NCBI GenBank assembly: GCA_951406725.2
Contig: OX597814.1
Location: 101,804,001 to 101,868,000 of the forward strand
Length of the DNA: 64,000 bases
Direction of reading: 5' to 3'
Source of the DNA: Octopus vulgaris
Lineage: Eukaryota
Shown piece after piece: positions 4,700 to 58,638 of the stretch. The notes under the pieces are model-generated. The model searched no databases and was not told the DNA's origin. It was given only the letters and a program-made list of their open reading frames with translations. Every line of letters begins with the position of its first letter. The stretch's first letter is position 1. The translations under genes were made by a program, and so were the position numbers.

Positions 4700-5831
4700 G
4701 AAATATATCAGAGTGATGACACCAAAGGCAATTTTGGGCCAGTTTGCAGTGGGAGAGGCTAATTTTATGACTCGTTTAGTTACCATGAATGAAACTTGGC
4801 TTCATCATTATGATCCTCAGACCAAGCAGCATTCAATATAGTGGCACGCAGCGGATTACTGCGTCCCAAGAGGTTTCGTGCCCAAAAGTCAGCTGGAAAG
4901 ATTCTGGCTTCAATGTTCTGGGACAAAGATGGAGTACTCCTCATAAAATACCTATTTCTTTACTACCCACAAGGGGCTACACACAGAGGGGGCAAACAAG
5001 GACAGACAAATGGATTAAGTCGATTATATCGACCCCGGTGCGTAACAGGTACTTATTTAATCGACCCCGAAAGGATGAAAGGCAAAGTCGATCTCGGCGG
5101 AATTTGAACTCAGAACGTAACGGCAGACGAAATACCTATTTCTTTATTACCCACAAGGGGCTAAACACAGAGGGGACAAACAAGGACAGACATAGGTATT
5201 AAGTCGATTACATCGACCCCAGTGCGTAACTGGTACTTAATTTATCGACTCCGAAAGGATGAAAGGCAAAGTCGACCTCGGCGGAATTTGAACTCACAAC
5301 GTAACGGCAGACGAAATACCGCTAAGCATTTCGCCCGGTGTGCTGACGTTTCTGCCAGCTCGCCACCTCATAAAATACCTGCCAAAGGGCCACACTATCA
5401 ATTCAGAATACTACTTGTGTCTGTTGAATGAACTGCGTGAGTCTTTGAAGCAGAAACACCATAGAAAGCTGAGCCATGGTGTACTGTTTTTGCAGGACAA
5501 TATACCAGCTCACATATCACCTGAAGCTTTACGGAAAATACACAGCTTTAGCTTCAAACTGGTAAGTACTCACCTTACTCTCCTGACGTGGACCCCTCTG
5601 GCTATCATTTCTTTCCACAACTGAAGAAAGAACTCAAAGGAACGAAATTTCACTCTGAGACCTGGTTAAAGGCCCGAATTTCCAAGTTCTTTTTACAGGG
5701 TTTAGAAAAACTGAAGGACTTCTGAAATAAGTATGTTAATCTGAGAGGGTAATATTTTGAATAAAATCATAATTAATTGATCATCCTTATTTTCTTTTAC
5801 CCAAAGCCAGGAACTTTTCAGCACCTCCTTG
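4700..5831 (+). mobile_element. Decayed mariner transposon (DD34D catalytic region plus right TIR), interrupted by a SINE
   Basis: Motifs VTMNETWLHHYDPQTK, SAGKILASMFWDKDGVLL, YLPKGHTINSEYY, FLQDNIPAH and PYSPD with frameshifts. Right end AACTTTTCAGCACCTCCTTG followed by TA. Confidence 0.85.
4954..5365 (-). mobile_element. Family B tRNA-derived SINE (partially duplicated) with 15-bp TSD
   Basis: CCTCATAAAATACCT at 4939-4953 and 5366-5380. Removing the insert restores the transposase reading GVLLIKYLPKGHT. Confidence 0.9.
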
Positions 5832-7486: not shown

Positions 7487-7623
7487 TGTATATACATATA
7501 TATATGTATATGCATATACATATATGTATAATTGCACATTGACTTTCACACACTTTAAGTTTTATTTAATATATATATATTTAATAAATATTTTCGCAAT
7601 GAATATTTTCGCTTATTTTCGCA

Positions 7624-9282
7624 ATGAATAAAGTGGGTATGTCACGGGAAGAAGTTAATGTAATTAAAATGGCTAGGAAATCGCTAATTAAATATAAAGA
7701 TAAATTATGGGCTAGGAATGATACTAGAGATTGTTTTGATATACCTATGGGAGCACCAGATTCTGCACAGGCTACTGATTTAGTAGGTATTTTTCTTTTA
7801 TCTGAACTCCAATTAGAAAATCTTAAGATAGAGGGTGGTTTATATAGAGACGATCTTCTACTAGTTACAAAGAATTGTACTAATAGGAATCTAGAAGTAT
7901 ATAAGAAAAAACTATATAGTTTCTTTAAAAGATATGGTTTAAGTATTACTATATATAAGGAGAATTATAATGTTAATTATTTAGATGTTAATTTTAATCT
8001 TATTACAGGTAAAACACAACCATATCATAAACTTAATGAGAACCTTAGATATATAAATGTTAATAGTAATCACCCATTTTCTATTAAAAAATCGTTGATT
8101 AATAATATTAGTAAACGTATTTCATTACTCTCTTATGATATAGAGATTTTTAATAAACATGCTAAATATTATAATGAGGCCCTTAGAGGGGCAGGTTATA
8201 ATAGGAATATTAAATTTTATAATATTAGTGATAAAGATTTAATTGTTAATTTTCGAGATACTTCTAATAATAATTATAATTTTGTTAGGTTTAGTGGTAA
8301 AAATAATAGATATAAAAAAAATAATAAAAATGATAAAAATATAAATAAGAATAATAATAATAATAATAAATATAATAATAATAATATAAATAAGAATAAT
8401 AAAAATAAAAATAAATTTAATAATTATTATAATAATTATATTGATAAATTTAATAATATTAATAATTCCTTAAATGCTGTACATAGATATAATTCTGATA
8501 ATAATTTTAATAAAATAAAGAATTATAAATATATTTATAATAATGATAATAATAATAAGGTTAATAAGAATAAAATTTGGTTAATTGTTCCTTATGGAGA
8601 TGAAGTAAAAACGAATATTATTAAAGAGATTTTAGATGTTATAGAACTATTTATTAGAGATAATCGTAAATATAGAAACATTTTCTCTTTTAATAATTTT
8701 GGAGTTGGTTACTCTACCACTAATAATGTAGGTAACATTATTTCTTCATTTAATAAATATAAACTGAATAATTTTTATAAAAAGAAATTATTTGATAATA
8801 ATATTAATAATGATAAGACTTATATTAATTGTACATGTAGAGATAAATCTAATTGTATATTAAATAATAATTGTGATATTAACGATGTAGTGTATAAATG
8901 TATAGTTACATTACATGATAATAACTTTAAGAATAATAATTACACAAAAGCGGTTTATATAGGTTCTACTTCCTCAAAAATAAAACTAAGAATCGCACAA
9001 CATATGAATTCTTTTAAAAATAAAAACTTAATCAACTCAACCGGACTTAGTAAGTACATTTGGAGTCTTAAATCACTAAATATTAATTATAGTTTAATTT
9101 GGGAAATAATTTGTAAAACTAAATCATATACTATAGGAGCTAATTGTTGTTATTTATGCTCTAATGAGTTTAAAGAAATTTTATTTTATAAGTATGATAA
9201 TTTACTTAATACTGGTGAAGAGCGAAAAATAAAATGCAGACATAAGTTACTTTACTTATATAATAAGTTTCATGATAAATAG
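7624..9282 (+). CDS. Penelope-like (Naiad-type) reverse transcriptase / GIY-YIG endonuclease, N-terminally truncated
   Basis: RT motifs FDIPMG, GLYRDD and VNYLDVNFNL; thumb YINVNSNHP; Asn-rich linker; CTC-x5-C-x5-C knuckle; GIY-YIG VVY...YIG, R(IAQH), LSKYIW, CYLC..E, LLN, CRH. No stop codons in 552 codons. Confidence 0.9.
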   Translation: MNKVGMSREEVNVIKMARKSLIKYKDKLWARNDTRDCFDIPMGAPDSAQATDLVGIFLLSELQLENLKIEGGLYRDDLLLVTKNCTNRNLEVYKKKLYSFFKRYGLSITIYKENYNVNYLDVNFNLITGKTQPYHKLNENLRYINVNSNHPFSIKKSLINNISKRISLLSYDIEIFNKHAKYYNEALRGAGYNRNIKFYNISDKDLIVNFRDTSNNNYNFVRFSGKNNRYKKNNKNDKNINKNNNNNNKYNNNNINKNNKNKNKFNNYYNNYIDKFNNINNSLNAVHRYNSDNNFNKIKNYKYIYNNDNNNKVNKNKIWLIVPYGDEVKTNIIKEILDVIELFIRDNRKYRNIFSFNNFGVGYSTTNNVGNIISSFNKYKLNNFYKKKLFDNNINNDKTYINCTCRDKSNCILNNNCDINDVVYKCIVTLHDNNFKNNNYTKAVYIGSTSSKIKLRIAQHMNSFKNKNLINSTGLSKYIWSLKSLNINYSLIWEIICKTKSYTIGANCCYLCSNEFKEILFYKYDNLLNTGEERKIKCRHKLLYLYNKFHDK

Positions 9283-12200
9283 CAATATTAGTTCCCTTTT
9301 AGGTTACTTTAGTTTAGTTTAAATTAGTTTAGATAATATATATTTTTGGTTATGTTGTCTAGGCTTTAATTATAGTTAGTCTTTATTGATTTTTCTTTGT
9401 TTTAATTAGTTCATTTTTAATGTATATTAATTTAACAGTATATGGTATGTTAAAACTTTAATAATTTATATTAGATTTTTTTTAATTTTCTTTATTTATA
9501 TATTTTTTTATTTTTTTATTTTTTTATTTTAATTTTATTTTATTATGTATTTTTATTATGCATTTGTTATATGTATTTTGGAGGATATATTTATATGTTG
9601 ATGGGTGTTATTTAGTGGTGTTTTTATTGAGTTTTGTATGTATGTGTGAATGTTTTGATCCCTTTGTTTTTTGTTTTTTATTTGGTATGTTGAATTGACA
9701 GATTTTATTTGGGTATTGTCTGTTATAATAAAGTACACACACCCATAACAAATATAAGTGCCCACTTCATTCGATGTACCTGGAATTGCATGTGAGCCTC
9801 AACATATACACCTAACGGCCACTCCTGCCCCATATGGATAAATAAACACATACATCCCCAAAAATGGGCGTAATCCCACTCACACCAATCACATGTATAC
9901 AATTATACACACTAGAATAATACATAACTAACCCAAATATACAGAACATACCAAAAATTACCAACTAACCACCATCACATATGAAACCAACACCCATACA
10001 ATGACAAAACTCCCCCCTCCATACCCAATTTACACCTACATAGCAATCCCAATATATTCATCCATACATGGACGCACGTGCGAGAAGCACATGCACATAA
10101 TAGATATGTACAACCCCCCAATACACACTCATATACATACGTATCAGGCTCGACATCCACAGCGATACGTTTACACCCACTCACACCAAGATGGGTGAAT
10201 TGCACAGCCAGGGAACGCACACACACATGTGTGCATTTTTTGATTGTGCAACTCGCCCATATGCATGTATGCGGGCGCGATTACATTGTTGCATATATCG
10301 AGCCCAAATAGCATGCATATGTACATGTGAGGGGGTACACGCTAATGACGTGCGCGTGTACCCCCTGCAAATATACTCGTGCGTGAATATACACATAGAG
10401 ACTACCACACAGGTACAAATGTGTATAGTAATGGGAGCCCCATTACTACACTTAATGTATACTCTCACCCATCCGCACGAATGTGAAAGTGAATCTCCGG
10501 TGTATATGTTGAGGCTTATATGTAGCGCTGTGGAGGCGAACGTCGTTGAAATTGTGAATGAATGGGTGGAGTTGGGAATTGTAACCGGGTGGTGGACTAG
10601 CGTTGCTTGGAATTGTGAGTGGAATAGTGTAGTTTTGAGGTAGGCATCGAGAATGGGTTGGGTTGCTGCAAGTTGTTTGTTAGAGCTGCTAAGGTGAGCT
10701 AAAGTTCATAAATGTATATAATGATTTTTCATGGTAGTTTTTTTAAAGAATCCATTCATAATAAATTTTTTTAAGTAGTGTTGGTTTGCCACGTGGATAT
10801 AGTTTTTAGTTCCATTTATTCTTTTTTCTCCATTCATAATTTTAAATGACGTTTACTTTCCATGGCGCGTATTCTTTTTTACATAAGTTATTTCTATGGT
10901 AACGTAATTTTGGTTTGATTTTTTTAACGGCTAAGAATTTAATTTCACTTCATAATTTGAAACTGACTTGTAAGTATGTAATTTATTTATCCTTATGTCA
11001 TATTGTTATTTTTGATATTCTGGTTAATTACGATGTATTTAATGTTGTTTTCATAGGAGTGTTTATGTATATGAGATTGTGTGTGAGTTTTTAGTTGTAT
11101 AATTTATTTATCTGTATGAGTGTGGGTGTGTAAATATTGTTGTATATATCGAGTTTAGTGAGTATGTATATGCGTATATGTGAGGGAGTATATGTATCTG
11201 TTGTGTGTGTGTGTTTTGCGTGTGTGTGTTTTTGTGTGTGAATGTGTATATGGGTTTGTTATTTAGGTTTTGGGATGTATGTGTTAATTTGTCTGTGTGG
11301 GGAGGGAGTGGGATTTGGTGTATATTGAGGTTTATAAGTTAGTATAGGTATGTGTATAAGTCGTGGGTCTGTGGTTTACGTGTGTGTATTTGTGTGTGAA
11401 TGTTTAGGTTAGGGGGATTGCTATATAGGTTTGTTATAGAGTTTAGCAAAGGGAGATTTTATCGTTATAGGTTTTAAGAGTTTTGGTTTATCATGGTTTT
11501 TTTTTTTTTTTTTTTTTTTTAGGGAATTCGTGGTAATTTGTCTATTTTCGATGTTGGTTGTTTTATTACATTGTTTCATTCATAATTTTTTGAGTGGTGT
11601 TCGTTTTGCCACGTGAATATTATTTTTAATTCCATTTATTCCATTTCTCCATTCATTAATTTAGAGATGTTCGTTTCCAGAGCGGTTATATTTTTTATAC
11701 ATATGTTAAGTTCCTTGGTAAAGTAATTTTGTTTGGTGTATATGTTGAGGCTTATTTGTACTTGTGGGTGTGTGTGAGTGGGGTGGGTGTTTGTATTTGT
11801 TATGAGTGTGTGGTTTACGTGTGTGTTTTTGTGTGTGAATGTATAGGTTATAGGGATTGCTATATAAGTATGTTATAGTGTTTAGTAAAGGGAGGTTTTA
11901 TTATTTCTGTTTTGTGAGTTTTAGCTTATCATGGTAGTTTTATAAAAGAATCCATTCATAATTTTTGTGTTGATTTGTCTTTGTGGGGTTGAGTGGGTTT
12001 TTGGAGTATATGTTGAGGTTTATATGTATGTATTGGTATGTGTAAGTGGTGTGGGTATTTGTATATGTCGTGGGTGTGTGGTTTACGTGTGTGTATTTGT
12101 GTGTGAATGTTTAGGTTAGGGGGATTGCTATATAGGTATGTTATAGAGTTTAGTAAAGGGAGATTTTATCATTATATGTTTTTGTGAGTTTTAGTTTATC

Positions 12201-12846
12201 ATGGTAGGTTTGTTTAGGAATTCGTAGTAATTTGTGTATATTTGCGATGTCTGTTGTTTTATTGCATTGTTTCATTCATAATTTTTAAGTAGTGTTCGTT
12301 TTACCAAGTGAATATAATTTTTAATTCCATTTATTCCATTTCTCCGTTCATAATTTTGAGTGATGTCCGTTTTCTAGAGCGTGAATGTGGGTTGTATGTG
12401 TGTGTGTGTGGGAGTATGAATAAGTATTGTGTTGAAGTATTTAGCTATTTTATTTATTTATAGTTGCCTAGACGTTTTTATGTGTATGTATAGGGATATA
12501 TATATAGGTGTGTGATTTAGTGTATGTAGTTAGATATGGTTATATATAATTAGGTATATGTGTATGGGTGTATATATAGTTTATTATTATATTATTATTA
12601 TTTTTTTGTTTTGTTTTATATTTTATATTTTATATTTTTTATTTTATATTTTATATTTTATATTTTATATTTTATATTTAATTGTTGATAGGTTTATTTT
12701 AGTTTATATATTGTTTATATATTGATTATATATGGATTATATATAGGTTATATATGGATTATATATTTATATTTTTTCATTCATACTTTAATTATTTTAA
12801 AATTATTATTTATATATTTTAAAATATTGATATTTTAGATTGAAGT

Positions 12847-12889
12847 CCACCTGAAGATTGTCGATCAAGACAAGAAACGATTGTAGTGG
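12847..12889 (+). ncRNA. Minimal type I hammerhead ribozyme at the Naiad 3' end
   Basis: CCAC-CTGAAGA-TTGTC/GATCAA/GACAA-GAAAC-GATT-GTA-GTGG. Perfect stem I (4 bp) and stem II (5 bp), short near-palindromic stem III, GUA cleavage triplet. Confidence 0.85.
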
Positions 12890-14369
12890 CGGTTTTTTTG
12901 ACTATTTATTAAAATTTTATGTATTGATTAAGTCTTTCCTTGTTTGTTTTGCAAAATAGTGGTTTTGTCTCTAATAATATTTTATATATATATATATATA
13001 TATAATAGAATTAAATAGAGCATATAAATCATATATTCAACAAGAAATTTTCAACTGATACCTCTTTATCTGATTATGCTTTCACTTACAATACTAACTA
13101 ACACACCATCAACTTACCAAATAATAACACAATGCAAATAGTTATATAAGCACACATACAAGCAAAAGTGTACCAGTACACACACACACACACACATAGA
13201 ACTGAACACAAAGACACACACACACATAGAACTGAGCACAAAGACACACACACACAACAGGCATCTTTCAGTTTCTGACTATCACACAAAGACACACACA
13301 TATACAGACACATGCAAAAGCACACATGCCTACATACATACATATTATACAGAACAAAGAAAAATATTTTTTCGGCTTGTTTTATTTTCATAATGACCTT
13401 CTGTAAATTCAAAATAAATTATACCCTTACAATTACACAACTTATCATAATTGCACTTTTACTTTCACTCACTTTAAGTTTTATTTAATTTCTTTCAATT
13501 AACCATTCAGTCTCCCTTCTCTAACCTTTAACATGGTTTACTAGAAATCTTACTTTCCCAACCCAAAATTTCCTTTATATAGAATTTTAACCAGAATGGT
13601 AAAACTTTGTCAGCATTCTCACAAACCACAAGGTAAATATCAAAAGGGAAATAAGGGGTTCTGGCACTGCCATTTTGGTGTCGCTAATTCAATGCTGGCT
13701 TATTTGATATCAGATGTTTTAATATTTTTCAAGTTTTCTCCTTTCCTCTCTCTCTCTCTCATTCTCTCCCCTCTCTCTTTCTCTCCCCTCTCACTTCCTC
13801 TTCCCCTCCCCTCTCACTCTGTATGTGTGTGAGCATATTTCTCTTTATGTACATAAGGAGAGGAAAAGTGTTTACGTCACTCAGGTTCAATTAATAAATT
13901 ATAATCTCTCTCTCTCATGCTTCCCTCTCTCTCATTCTCCTTCTCCTTCTCTCTTTCATTCTACATGTGTATATTTGAGCTTATATACATGTGTATGTGT
14001 GTATATATGCGTATGTGTGTGTGTGTGCATGCTTGTGTGTGTACATGTGTATGTGTATGCATGCTTGCATGCATGCGTGTGTGTGCATGTGTTTGTGTGC
14101 ATGCATGTATATTTCTATAACTCTGTATGTGTGCATGTGTGTGAGTGTGTGTCCCTCTGGTGCTAAAAAGTACTGTCACCAAAAGAGGGTCAGTGTCCAG
14201 TCAGCATCCAAACGGCTGCCCCTAGTAATCTCAATCAACATCAAGACTGCTGCTTTTAATCGAGCATCCAGAGCTGAATGATAATCTTTGCAGCAACACA
14301 ATGCCTGTTCAGGTTTTCTATGAGAATCTTCTGGCAACTCCGTAACAGATTCCATTCATGTGAAAGAGA

Positions 14370-42345: not shown

Positions 42346-42415
42346 GCTATTTAGCTTAATGTTAAAGCACTCAGCTGGTACCTGAGGGGTACAGGTTCAA
42401 TTCCTGTAGCTGGCA
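42346..42415 (+). tRNA. tRNA-Thr(GGT)-like sequence (probable pseudogene or SINE head)
   Basis: D stem GCTT/AAGC, anticodon stem CTCAG/CTGAG with loop CTGGTAC, T arm ACAGG-TTCAATT-CCTGT, imperfect acceptor stem. A T-run follows immediately. Confidence 0.5.
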
Positions 42416-55630: not shown

Positions 55631-56166
55631 TGTTGAGGCAAGTGAAATCAAAATCGATGACTGGCACCCATGCCAGTGGAGCACTGAGAGCACTGTCCAA
55701 ACATGATCGTTGCCAGAGCAGCTGACTGGCTTCCATGCCGGTGGCACATAAAAAGCACTATTTGTGTGTGATTGTTACCAGCGTCGCCTTACTGGCACGT
55801 GAAAAACTATTCGAGTGAGGTCGTTGCTAGTGCTGCTGGACTAGCTCCTGTGCAGGTGGCACATAAAAAACACCATTTGAGTGTGGCCTTTGCCAGTACC
55901 GCCTGACTGGTCCTCATGCCAGTGACACATAAAAGCACCCACTACACTCTCAGAGTGGTTGGCGTTAGCAAGGGTATCCAGCTATAGAAACTTTGCCAGA
56001 TCAGATTGGAGCCTAGTGCAGCCATCTGGTTCGCCAGTCCTCAGTCAAAATCGTCCAACCCATGCTAGCATGGAAGGCAGACATTAAACGATGATGATGA
56101 TGTATGTATATATAAATATATATTCACCTCATCCCATGTCTGTATATATGTATGTATATATAAGTA

Positions 56167-56213
<47 letters not shown>

Positions 56214-56249
56214 TGTGTGTGTGTGTGTGTGTATATATATGTCTGTATA

Positions 56250-56288
<39 letters not shown>

Positions 56289-56432
56289 CTGTATATATCT
56301 ATGTGTGTGTACATGTATATATATATATATATGTGTGTGTGTCTGTGTGTGTGTGCATGTGTATATATATATGCGTGTGTATATATATATGTGTGTATAT
56401 ATACTTCGAGCTTACCAGTTCTCAATCAAACC

Positions 56433-58638
56433 AATGGGCCCCAATTTTGCCAACCTCTTTGTTGGCCACATTGAGGCCCAAGCATTCTGCCAGTTCTCCA
56501 GGCTGAGCTCAGAGCTATACGGTCGCTACATAGACGACTGTATAGGTGCCACTTTCCTCTCCCATGAACAACTCTGCCACTTCATCTCTTTCCTCTCTAA
56601 CTTCCACCATTCTCTCCAATTCACTTCTACTATCTCTGACATCTCTGTTAACTTCCTCGACATCTCTCTTACCATTGACCACCCCTCCCACTCTCACCAC
56701 CTCTGCCTTCTTCAAACCCACAGATTCTCATCTCTACCTCAACTCCTCCTCCTCCCATCCCTTCCACACCAAACGGGTCATCCCCTACTCCCAATTCCTC
56801 TGCCTCCGACGCTTGTGCAGCCATGACCAGGATTTTGAGACTCTGTCACAGTACCTGGCCCACCTGTTCAGGCATCAAGGATACCCCCAACCCTTGTCCA
56901 GAATGCCCTTTCCCATGCTCGTCAAATCGACTCATCACCACTCTTTCTCCTTCCTCTCACCAACGCCCTAACCACACCCCCTTTCCCCTCCTTTTCCACC
57001 CCTCCACTCTACCTCTTCGTTGGAGGATACTACAGGCCTTCTGTCGTCTCCAGCTCGATCCCACCACCCACTTCATTTTCCCTAACACACCCTTGTCCTC
57101 CTTCAAACGCGCCCGGGACCTACATGATCTCCTGGTCCGTAGCACCTTCTCCTATTCCCCCTCAGCCCCACATGGATCCTTCCCATGCTCCAGATCCCGC
57201 TGCAACACCTGCCCCTTCATCACCAACACCACTTCTATCACTGGTTCTAACCAACAAACTGTGTTTATTAGAAATTCCTTCACTTGCACTTCTTCTAGCC
57301 TCATCTACTACATTAAATGCAACCTCTGTGGGAAGCTTTATGTAGGTTAGACAGGCCGCTGACTGTCCAACCAGTTCACCGAACATCTAAGAGATGTTCG
57401 GCTACGTTCCAACACTCCTGTCGCCCGTCACTTCCGCTTGGCCAACCATTCCCCTCTAACATCTCTGTCTTTGGCCTCGCTCTACACTATGGATCCCCAG
57501 AAACAAGGCTTCACTTGGAACAGCGCTATATCTTCAATTTACAGACCTCTATCCCGCACGGACTTAACACAACCCTCTCTTCTTATTGATTGCCTCTACA
57601 CCTCCCGCAACAAGCAACTTTATTTCTTTTCTCATTTTTTATTTCTTACTTGTAATTGCGTCTTTTATATTGGATTTACTTCCTTATATTTTATTGTTTT
57701 TATAATTTTTTGTTTTTTTTATTGTTTATAATTTATTGTTTTTATTTCTATATACACGAACACATACACACACATACGTATTCACAAACGCACATATACC
57801 TCCCACACACCACACACATACAACATACATACATGCACATATACACACACATACTTCCACACACATACACACACTTACACAAACATACACACACAGAGGA
57901 ATGCACAGATACTATCCCACACAACCCCACACACACACAGGCACACATACCTTTAGACACACTCACATATAAACATACACCACCACATACACATACTCAA
58001 GCACACACGCGTACACACGACAAAATGGACACAACCTGACACACATCTCCATGTTCACACACACTAGCACAGGTTCGCGCATATACCTCCAACAAACAAT
58101 ACACATACAGACACACACACAATTATACAGCCATGGGCAAAAACACACACGCACATACACACGCACTTAAGCACACACACACACAAGCACATGCACGCAC
58201 ATACACACAGGTACACACATTATGCCTACACAAACCCCCACACACACACAACCCACGCACATACGCATACACAAATCCACATATACCCCTATACATATAT
58301 ATACACACAATACATGCATACACGCGCACACACACATACACATATAGACACACACACAAACATGCGCGCACACACGCATGCACACGAATGCACACACCTA
58401 ACACTCACAACCCCACAGATACATGTATATACAACCACATACACACACACATACACACGCACATACGACATGCACACACATACACACACACACAAATGAA
58501 CCCACACATACCTCCCATACACACAGCACACACTTATACATACACGCACACAATTATACATATATGTATATACACATACAAGCACACACATGCACAAAAG
58601 AAAGCACAGTTATTCCCCACACATGCGACCACACACAT

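Follow-up and report, generated by a model that had tools for sequence, protein, structure and literature searches.

In a window of 64,000 nucleotides of Octopus vulgaris DNA (the whole stretch analysed, to which coordinates refer unless a locus is named) lies a young, high-copy Penelope-like retroelement, the 3' UTR of which has gained an inverted piece twice, each newly paired stretch then taking A>G changes that are very probably ADAR A-to-I edits, reverse-transcribed and inherited. Comparison of genomic copies shows two successive inversions, A>G change in paired regions on the transcribed strand, inheritance of these changes along lineages and a separate C>T bias.

Identity and structure of the element

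A search with positions 11500-12400 gave at least 213 matches, 40 of 512 candidates being scored, and the best 40 listed were 98-100% identical. The window copy is 5'-truncated at ~7610; in an intact natural copy (L017), a pLTR and a short 5' UTR precede the 837-aa ORF, which is followed by a 3.7-kb 3' UTR, and the full element is ~6.4 kb in length. The features of the window copy are listed below.

7610..9282, + strand: 5'-truncated Hydra-type Penelope-like ORF, 559-aa open frame (motifs compared with PMC8557442)
9283..9734, + strand: first part of the 3' UTR, T-rich and collinear with its counterpart in older subfamilies; 0 internal-branch A>G events for 114 A (copy alignment)
9735..10720, - strand: inverted block, the reverse complement of L128 UTR 1463-2593, minus 138 nt (alignment)
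9997..10452, unstranded: fossil fold-back hairpin, arms 9997-10223 and 10228-10452 (folding, precursor comparison)
10460..12222, + strand: 1763-nt segment, single here, tandemly duplicated in a sister subfamily (copy comparison)
10500..10725, - strand: inverted copy of the 'c' unit, hottest zone for new A>G (pair counts)
10721..12400, + strand: older G/T-rich direct units, also in subfamilies without any inversion
12847..12889, + strand: minimal type I hammerhead ribozyme motif (read by eye; same place in relatives)
12984..13003, + strand: 3' terminus, passing into the (TA)n insertion target (locus comparison)

The ORF at 7610-9282 contains the C-terminal half of the reverse transcriptase (RT; PMG and YRDD), an Asn-rich stretch, a CxCx5C linker and, C-terminally, a GIY-YIG endonuclease; between the RT thumb and the endonuclease, an in-frame Asn/Lys-rich low-complexity stretch of ~100 aa (8260-8570) is open in young copies. 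In the 837-aa ORF of L017 the RT motifs come first and a VYIG-type endonuclease motif lies near the C-terminus, DKT is found where Naiad has DKA, the linker CTCRDKSNC follows the CxCx5C pattern of Hydra, and the N-terminal RIKWK is an inexact match to the Hydra RWK. By eye, unaligned to references, no CCHH motif was evident in the endonuclease, and a CxxC is present. A Pfam search of the ORF returned zero families above cut-off, and a 179-aa frame at 10104-10643 was rejected as a gene, being open in only 10 of 46 copies.

The hammerhead motif comprises stem I (CCAC/GTGG), a CTGAAGA core, a 5-bp stem II and GAAAC, with a predicted cut after GTA at 12885; Rfam did not detect it at the gathering score, and it also differs from the minimum free energy (MFE) fold. 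The 3' end was the same in all six loci compared, with TA repeats following in five.

The Hydra clade is marked by a C-terminal GIY-YIG, DKT, a CxCx5C linker, a hammerhead and a (TA)n target (PMC8557442); Naiad, in the available portion of that source, has its GIY-YIG endonuclease N-terminal to the RT, DKA and no canonical hammerhead. As the RT comes first and GIY-YIG last, and DKT, CxCx5C, the hammerhead motif and (TA)n are present, the window element is, by its motifs, a Hydra-type Penelope-like retroelement. The Naiad identity given in an earlier note on this DNA is ruled out by the C-terminal GIY-YIG, DKT and the hammerhead motif, and the ribozyme that the same note had placed downstream of the repeat region is this motif.

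A near-identical 28-nt AT-rich stretch flanks the element (7545-7572 and 13462-13489, ~480 nt past the 3' end). Elsewhere in the window there are fragments of another Penelope-like element in several frames (56164-57731; a GRYIDD-like RT motif, and a YVG motif after CxxC), a common dispersed repeat in the form of a tandem pair of 184-nt copies, adjoining mariner-like transposase remnants (4946-5320), and a tRNA-like match at 42346-42415 (Rfam RF00005, 51 bits, some non-standard pairs).

Repeat units of the 3' UTR

The 3' UTR had been described as a set of direct and inverted paralogous units, and these were recovered at much the same positions, with best real alignment scores of 160-347 against a shuffle maximum of 140 (70 shuffles). 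The part described as inverted, 9735-10200, is indeed so, but its true span is larger (9735-10720) and takes in what had been regarded as the first direct copy. The direct units are c' (10721-10930), a'b' (11060-11290), abc (11280-11690), ab (11731-11960) and abc (11966-12390). The inverted 'c' copy at 10500-10725 complements 10720-10885, 11515-11710 and 12160-12400, and with the last of these gives 67 G·U vs 3 A·C, 46 of those G·U involving a G new since the inversion. Since its inversion the block has been drifting by A>G and C>T on the + strand, while the fossil hairpin within it is rich in G·U when read on the minus strand, the sense strand at the time of editing, and rich in A·C on the present sense strand.

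In old subfamilies the a' homologue is a degenerate (TA)/(TG)/(TATG) microsatellite (L070, ~490-830 nt past the stop codon), which suggests that the repeated unit may have begun as a captured simple repeat. The 1763-nt segment is tandem, and sometimes present three times, in a young subfamily (L014, L016, L019, L024-L026, L029, L030, L032-L034, L039, L040, L045). Its upstream and downstream copies carry fixed differences, thus the tandem is a single inherited event; that it is remade at every insertion is ruled out, as the upstream copies cluster among themselves. Sister segments were also compared inside a single insertion, a comparison put aside since it mixed both inherited copies of this duplication.

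Copies, age series and tree

Fifty-eight loci were fetched, anchored on the endonuclease at 62-97% protein identity; the copies analysed are the best search matches and not a random sample of the family. At 79-86% endonuclease identity the 3' UTR is mostly ~2.0-2.7 kb without the block, at 89-97% most copies have longer G/T-rich direct duplications, also without the block, and the block in the window orientation was found only at 97-100%. Almost no 3' UTR was found in 5 of the 58 loci. Short forms, in which the hammerhead lies only ~200-230 nt past the stop codon (L051, L055, L065, L134, L145; 87-94% endonuclease identity), occur beside long forms, and either recurrent deletion or a parallel short lineage is proposed for them. 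A middle-aged copy, L050, has a 99% identical 450-nt inverted repeat at UTR 731-2235, possibly an independent fresh inversion or insertion.

The post-inversion alignment consists of 46 copies spanning the block. Six of 40 further fetched loci were left out of it because no single match spanned the block, and three of the six (L096, L117, L118) are precursors. The tree of the 46 copies is ladder-shaped, and along it the G+T content of the block climbs from 0.33 up to 0.445, the block diverging ~4x faster than the rest. When the tree was rooted, with the 33 of the 46 copies that were long enough plus 4 outgroups, the pre-inversion sisters rooted the ladder at its A/C-rich end and the post-inversion clade had a bootstrap of 100. 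Internal branches carry 55 C>T, 16 G>A, 50 A>G and 3 T>C in the block; polymorphisms among the youngest copies alone were too few for a clear bias.

The precursor and the first round of A>G

In L128 the block lies the other way round (90% over 718 nt, plus the 138 nt missing from the window lineage), and L146, L147, L117, L118, L096 and L149 are of the same kind. The predicted sense-RNA stem of L128 has 282 pairs, 108 of them G·U. The fold-back is lacking in the sister L129, which is 94-95% identical to L128 over collinear segments, and the two were compared on columns confirmed by at least two of three further sisters (335/341 columns). A>G had occurred at 39/76 A of the 3' arm and 77/143 of the 5' arm (116/219 in total) against 1/276 and 0/197 in the flanks (1/473; arms vs flanks p=1e-68), and C>T on the arms at 1/13 and 1/70. 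On the 5' arm the proportion of A changed depended on the 5' neighbour, being 37/50 (74%) after U, 22/41 (54%) after A, 17/42 (40%) after C and 1/7 (14%) after G; the 3' arm is less clear, with 4/10 A>G at a 5' G. An ADAR-like signature fits this fresh fold-back very well, with about half of its A changed to G on both arms and a 5' order of U>A>C>G on the 5' arm.

Polarity of the G·U bias

The earlier note had reported that the downstream copies differ from the inverted and first copies mostly by C>T and A>G, turning Watson-Crick pairs into G·U on the sense RNA. The bias itself stands, with 305 G·U vs 79 A·C between the inverted arm and the downstream copies in nine overlapping and non-independent alignments, seven of which are individually significant and two not (25:23, 25:15). 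However, the closest and longest inverted pair (9997-10223/10228-10452) has the opposite bias on the sense RNA, 19 G·U vs 58 A·C. Sites with C in the first direct copy and T in the copy at 11060 outnumber the converse by 37:0, and those with A in the first and G downstream by 15:5, whereas comparisons among the downstream copies come out even (C/T 2:2, A/G 8:9; C/T 4:2, A/G 7:5). With these balanced and the nearest pair reversed, the bias, though genuine, does not reflect drift in the downstream copies, which are, on the copy comparison, near-ancestral; the inverted block is what changed. At the very example chosen to illustrate the drift, the precursors and basal copies match the downstream copy, and only late copies differ. 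Of the 37 sites at which the first copy has C and the downstream copy T, 36 had C as early as the precursors; so polarised, most of the supposed C>T is fossil A>G from the opposite strand, read as T>C after re-inversion. The count of G·U against A·C, proposed as a check, thus finds the bias but cannot separate selection from biased mutation, as G·U results from every A>G or C>U change that falls within a duplex.

Strand flip and the second round of A>G

Comparison with other genomic copies, also proposed as a check, gave the order of changes from the precursors and the 46 post-inversion copies. On a tree of seven precursors and 21 of the 46, orientated in window letters, A>G:T>C was 4:13 before the inversion and 169:11 after it (p=7e-11), and C>T:G>A was 16:21 and 131:34 (p=3e-5), totals that do not depend much on the weakly supported basal branch order after the inversion (bootstrap 29-50). 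A pairwise comparison of L046 with L128, reverse-complemented, had not given a clear polarity (48 vs 31), hence the use of this tree. By these counts the direction of change follows the transcribed strand and not the sequence. Along the trunk to the window, A>G:C>T went from 50:9 early to 17:37 late (p=1e-8), and only 13 further such changes lay on the pre-inversion branches sampled.

Pairing was measured by MFE folds and by an ungapped best-local-duplex score over the whole UTR. By terciles of this score, A>G in the block occurred at 2/110, 10/111 and 24/108 (p=9e-7), and synonymous sites of the ORF had 0/100 A>G on internal branches. As regards the suggested folding check, the enrichment in duplexes emerged with the whole-UTR score, unlike with a single MFE fold cut at 11960, where A>G was not enriched in helices (UTR p=0.15, block p=1.0). 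G>A also climbs with the duplex score (p=0.008), which is probably mis-polarised parallel A>G.

One branch, which may cover several transposition rounds, has 17 A>G on both arms vs 1 other change, and terminal A>G counts are overdispersed (X2=214, df 45). A>G is clustered on terminal branches (30 vs 15, p=2e-4; internal branches p=0.35), and terminal A>T clusters too (p=0.003). When weighted by exposure, A>G had a 5' G at 0.65 of expected (p=0.045; 0.54, p=0.001 with costlier reversals) and a 3' A at 1.37. The ADAR neighbour context called for in the earlier note is clear on the 5' arm of L128 and moderate in the second round, but is not seen in unweighted per-site counts, which are without 5'-G depletion (9/34, 10/35 and 8/17 sites hit). 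A test for mutual exclusion of edits at UA/UA steps, which suppression by G·U wobbles would lead one to expect, gave an odds ratio of 0.27 (p=0.11). Contigs of four runs guessed to be RNA cover 9740-10960; their differences are of the kind separating genomic copies and are uninformative on editing or expression. Adenosine-deaminase domains, candidates for ADAR, are found at four places in the genome.

A separate sense-strand C>T process

C>T is untied to pairing (21/97, 14/91 and 16/92 by duplex-score terciles in the block), is Poisson-like with variance equal to the mean, and prefers CpA and CpG on the sense strand; at CpG, with exposure equal on both strands, sense exceeds mirror by 20 vs 4 on internal and 39 vs 15 on terminal branches. 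In 18 diverged ORFs, synonymous C is rarer before A/G (0.12, 0.11) than before C/T (0.24, 0.26), thus the process looks old and element-wide. On these patterns it is a process separate from A>G, clock-like and duplex-independent. Also on the sense strand, internal branches of the 46-copy tree have 50:22 A>T vs T>A and 26:14 C>A vs G>T in the 3' UTR, an excess that is perhaps partly due to slippage in T-rich tracts.

A single strand-biased copying error or single-strand deamination behind both A>G and C>T, such as G·T wobble misincorporation while the sense strand is synthesised or damage to an exposed strand, would give one cause for the strand flip, and the CpG asymmetry and the depletion of synonymous C before A/G agree with it for C>T. 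It would, however, make A>G ubiquitous and clock-like, whereas A>G came in bursts and spared the synonymous ORF sites and all but one of the flanking A, and the first round had 116 A>G but 2 C>T. As an account of both classes it has little likelihood; for C>T alone it remains a candidate.

Selection, arm correction and the fate of the duplex

In 23 copies tallied, the sense duplexes hold A·C at 0-5 of 366 pairs while G·U climbs from ~40 to 79, the pairs being fold-defined and the tally so biased; lineages bearing the block are, in addition, the most numerous young ones found. Both observations might be taken to favour selection that built or keeps a G·U-rich RNA duplex, the first option of the earlier note, or that weakens perfect dsRNA to evade surveillance, with ordinary mutations supplying the changes. 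Yet A>T, C>A and C>T, which would also weaken or alter the duplex, are untied to duplex score, A opposite C changed no more readily than A opposite U (4/36 vs 5/36), and the duplex decays, Watson-Crick pairs falling from ~320 to 257 as mismatches go up. Selection would also leave the 5' neighbour order and the single-branch bursts unexplained, and does not sit well with the many subfamilies lacking the inversion or the loci with almost no 3' UTR. The bias needs no selection, since A>G and C>T both turn Watson-Crick pairs into G·U. The tests favour biased mutation, with no sign of selection for the duplex among them, and a selective origin appears quite improbable.

Template switching or gene conversion between the arms (quasi-palindrome correction) could also give directional changes: once the second inversion had taken place, A·C sites hit by A>G or C>T do become Watson-Crick pairs, and A·C in the fossil hairpin fell from ~80 to ~50. 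Rates are, however, similar at A·C and Watson-Crick positions, the internal-branch transversions listed mostly break pairs or fall on unpaired sites, and arm-to-arm copying would erase G·U rather than make 108, so that this explanation is highly improbable. Repair of A·C mismatches was likewise rejected, A·C having changed no faster than Watson-Crick positions.

Proposed sequence of events

ADAR editing fixed by reverse transcription, the other option of the earlier note, fits the A>G very well; of the C>T that it was also meant to cover, much is opposite-strand fossil A>G and the real remainder is duplex-independent. In the copy comparison, the history begins with older subfamilies having direct G/T-rich units only. 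A fold-back then gave a hairpin of ~280 predicted pairs, and on each arm roughly one A in two was replaced by G, the flanks remaining unchanged. Re-inversion of the region produced 9735-10720, in which the earlier changes now appear as T>C and the former G·U pairs as A·C. The block, now able to pair with the downstream units in the sense RNA, gained its new A>G in bursts, mostly early, while a slower, clock-like C>T at sense CpA/CpG erodes the C-rich block whether paired or not.

From the signature of the changes we infer ADAR as the agent and RNA as the substrate: element RNA would be edited by ADAR and the RT of the element would read I as G, with editing waning as G·U pairs build up. In the available part of PMC11994451, engineered guides with G·U wobbles show suppressed editing at UAN. 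The inversions may have arisen by the capture of partial copies in inverted orientation, for which Penelope-like insertions are known in the available text of PMC8557442, and the C>T could stem from RNA cytosine deamination or from T:G misincorporation in sense-strand synthesis.

A wider reading is put forward tentatively, and is rather doubtful: ADAR would be a heritable directional mutator that defuses the dsRNA of retrotransposons, every new inverted repeat being hyper-edited in a few transposition rounds, and the resulting G·U duplex would resist further editing and surveillance so that lineages persist and expand, alongside a second, undescribed mutator causing C>T at sense-strand CpA/CpG.

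If the favoured history of two edited inversions is true, an active retrotransposon family carries RNA editing into germline DNA, again and again and to an extent sufficient to rewrite a kilobase, and its numerous copies make up a chronological series of inherited RNA edits. The strand flip provides a natural control separating RNA-level from DNA-level mutation, and from the ladder of copies one can estimate the speed at which editing declines with the build-up of G·U pairs. There is also a warning, as G·U-compatible change in transposon hairpins is possible without selection, and such regions, here changing ~4x faster than the rest, distort dating based on divergence.

Comparison with known systems

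The window lineage has in common with the Hydra clade the C-terminal GIY-YIG, DKT, the CxCx5C linker, the hammerhead motif and the (TA)n target, as well as, in the available portion of PMC8557442, a pLTR with tandem and inverted insertions. Hydra elements are generally <3 kb, a tendency which is not diagnostic (PMC8557442), whereas the window lineage is ~6.4 kb, its 3.7-kb 3' UTR having grown via duplications and inversions.

Hyper-editing of repeat RNA is described in the available part of PMC5625713 for lizard Penelope among others and at very high levels in octopus, with an invertebrate motif in which 5' G is depleted and 3' A enriched. The window element shares the dependence on dsRNA and both features of this motif; however, the edits in the accessible text of that study were seen in RNA reads, whereas those of the window element stand in genomic DNA. 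APOBEC editing of DNA has been fixed in vertebrate LTR retrotransposons as sense-strand G>A arising from cDNA, and was absent in the 19 invertebrates screened (PMC4866542, as far as its available text goes). Strand-biased clusters in genomic retroelement copies, due to a host deaminase, are common to both systems in that text, but its APOBEC signature is G>A, and that of the window element is A>G confined to RNA duplexes together with sense-strand C>T.

A literature search, the scope of which was without most subscription journals, found no account of ADAR edits fixed in Penelope-like elements. A close parallel is the ADAR-type A>G hypermutation seen in avian retroviruses (Rous-associated virus as well as avian leukosis virus; available portion of PMC12925331), where, in the same portion, about half of A becomes G in an inverted-repeat region and is recorded by reverse transcription, as in the window element. 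The latter, in contrast, is an endogenous Penelope-like element in which the edits have been inherited over many rounds of copying, in two opposite-strand rounds that are ordered by a tree. Reverse-transcribed A>G hypermutation is thus itself known, and what the window locus adds is the two-round, tree-ordered record, with its built-in strand control and a separable C>T process.
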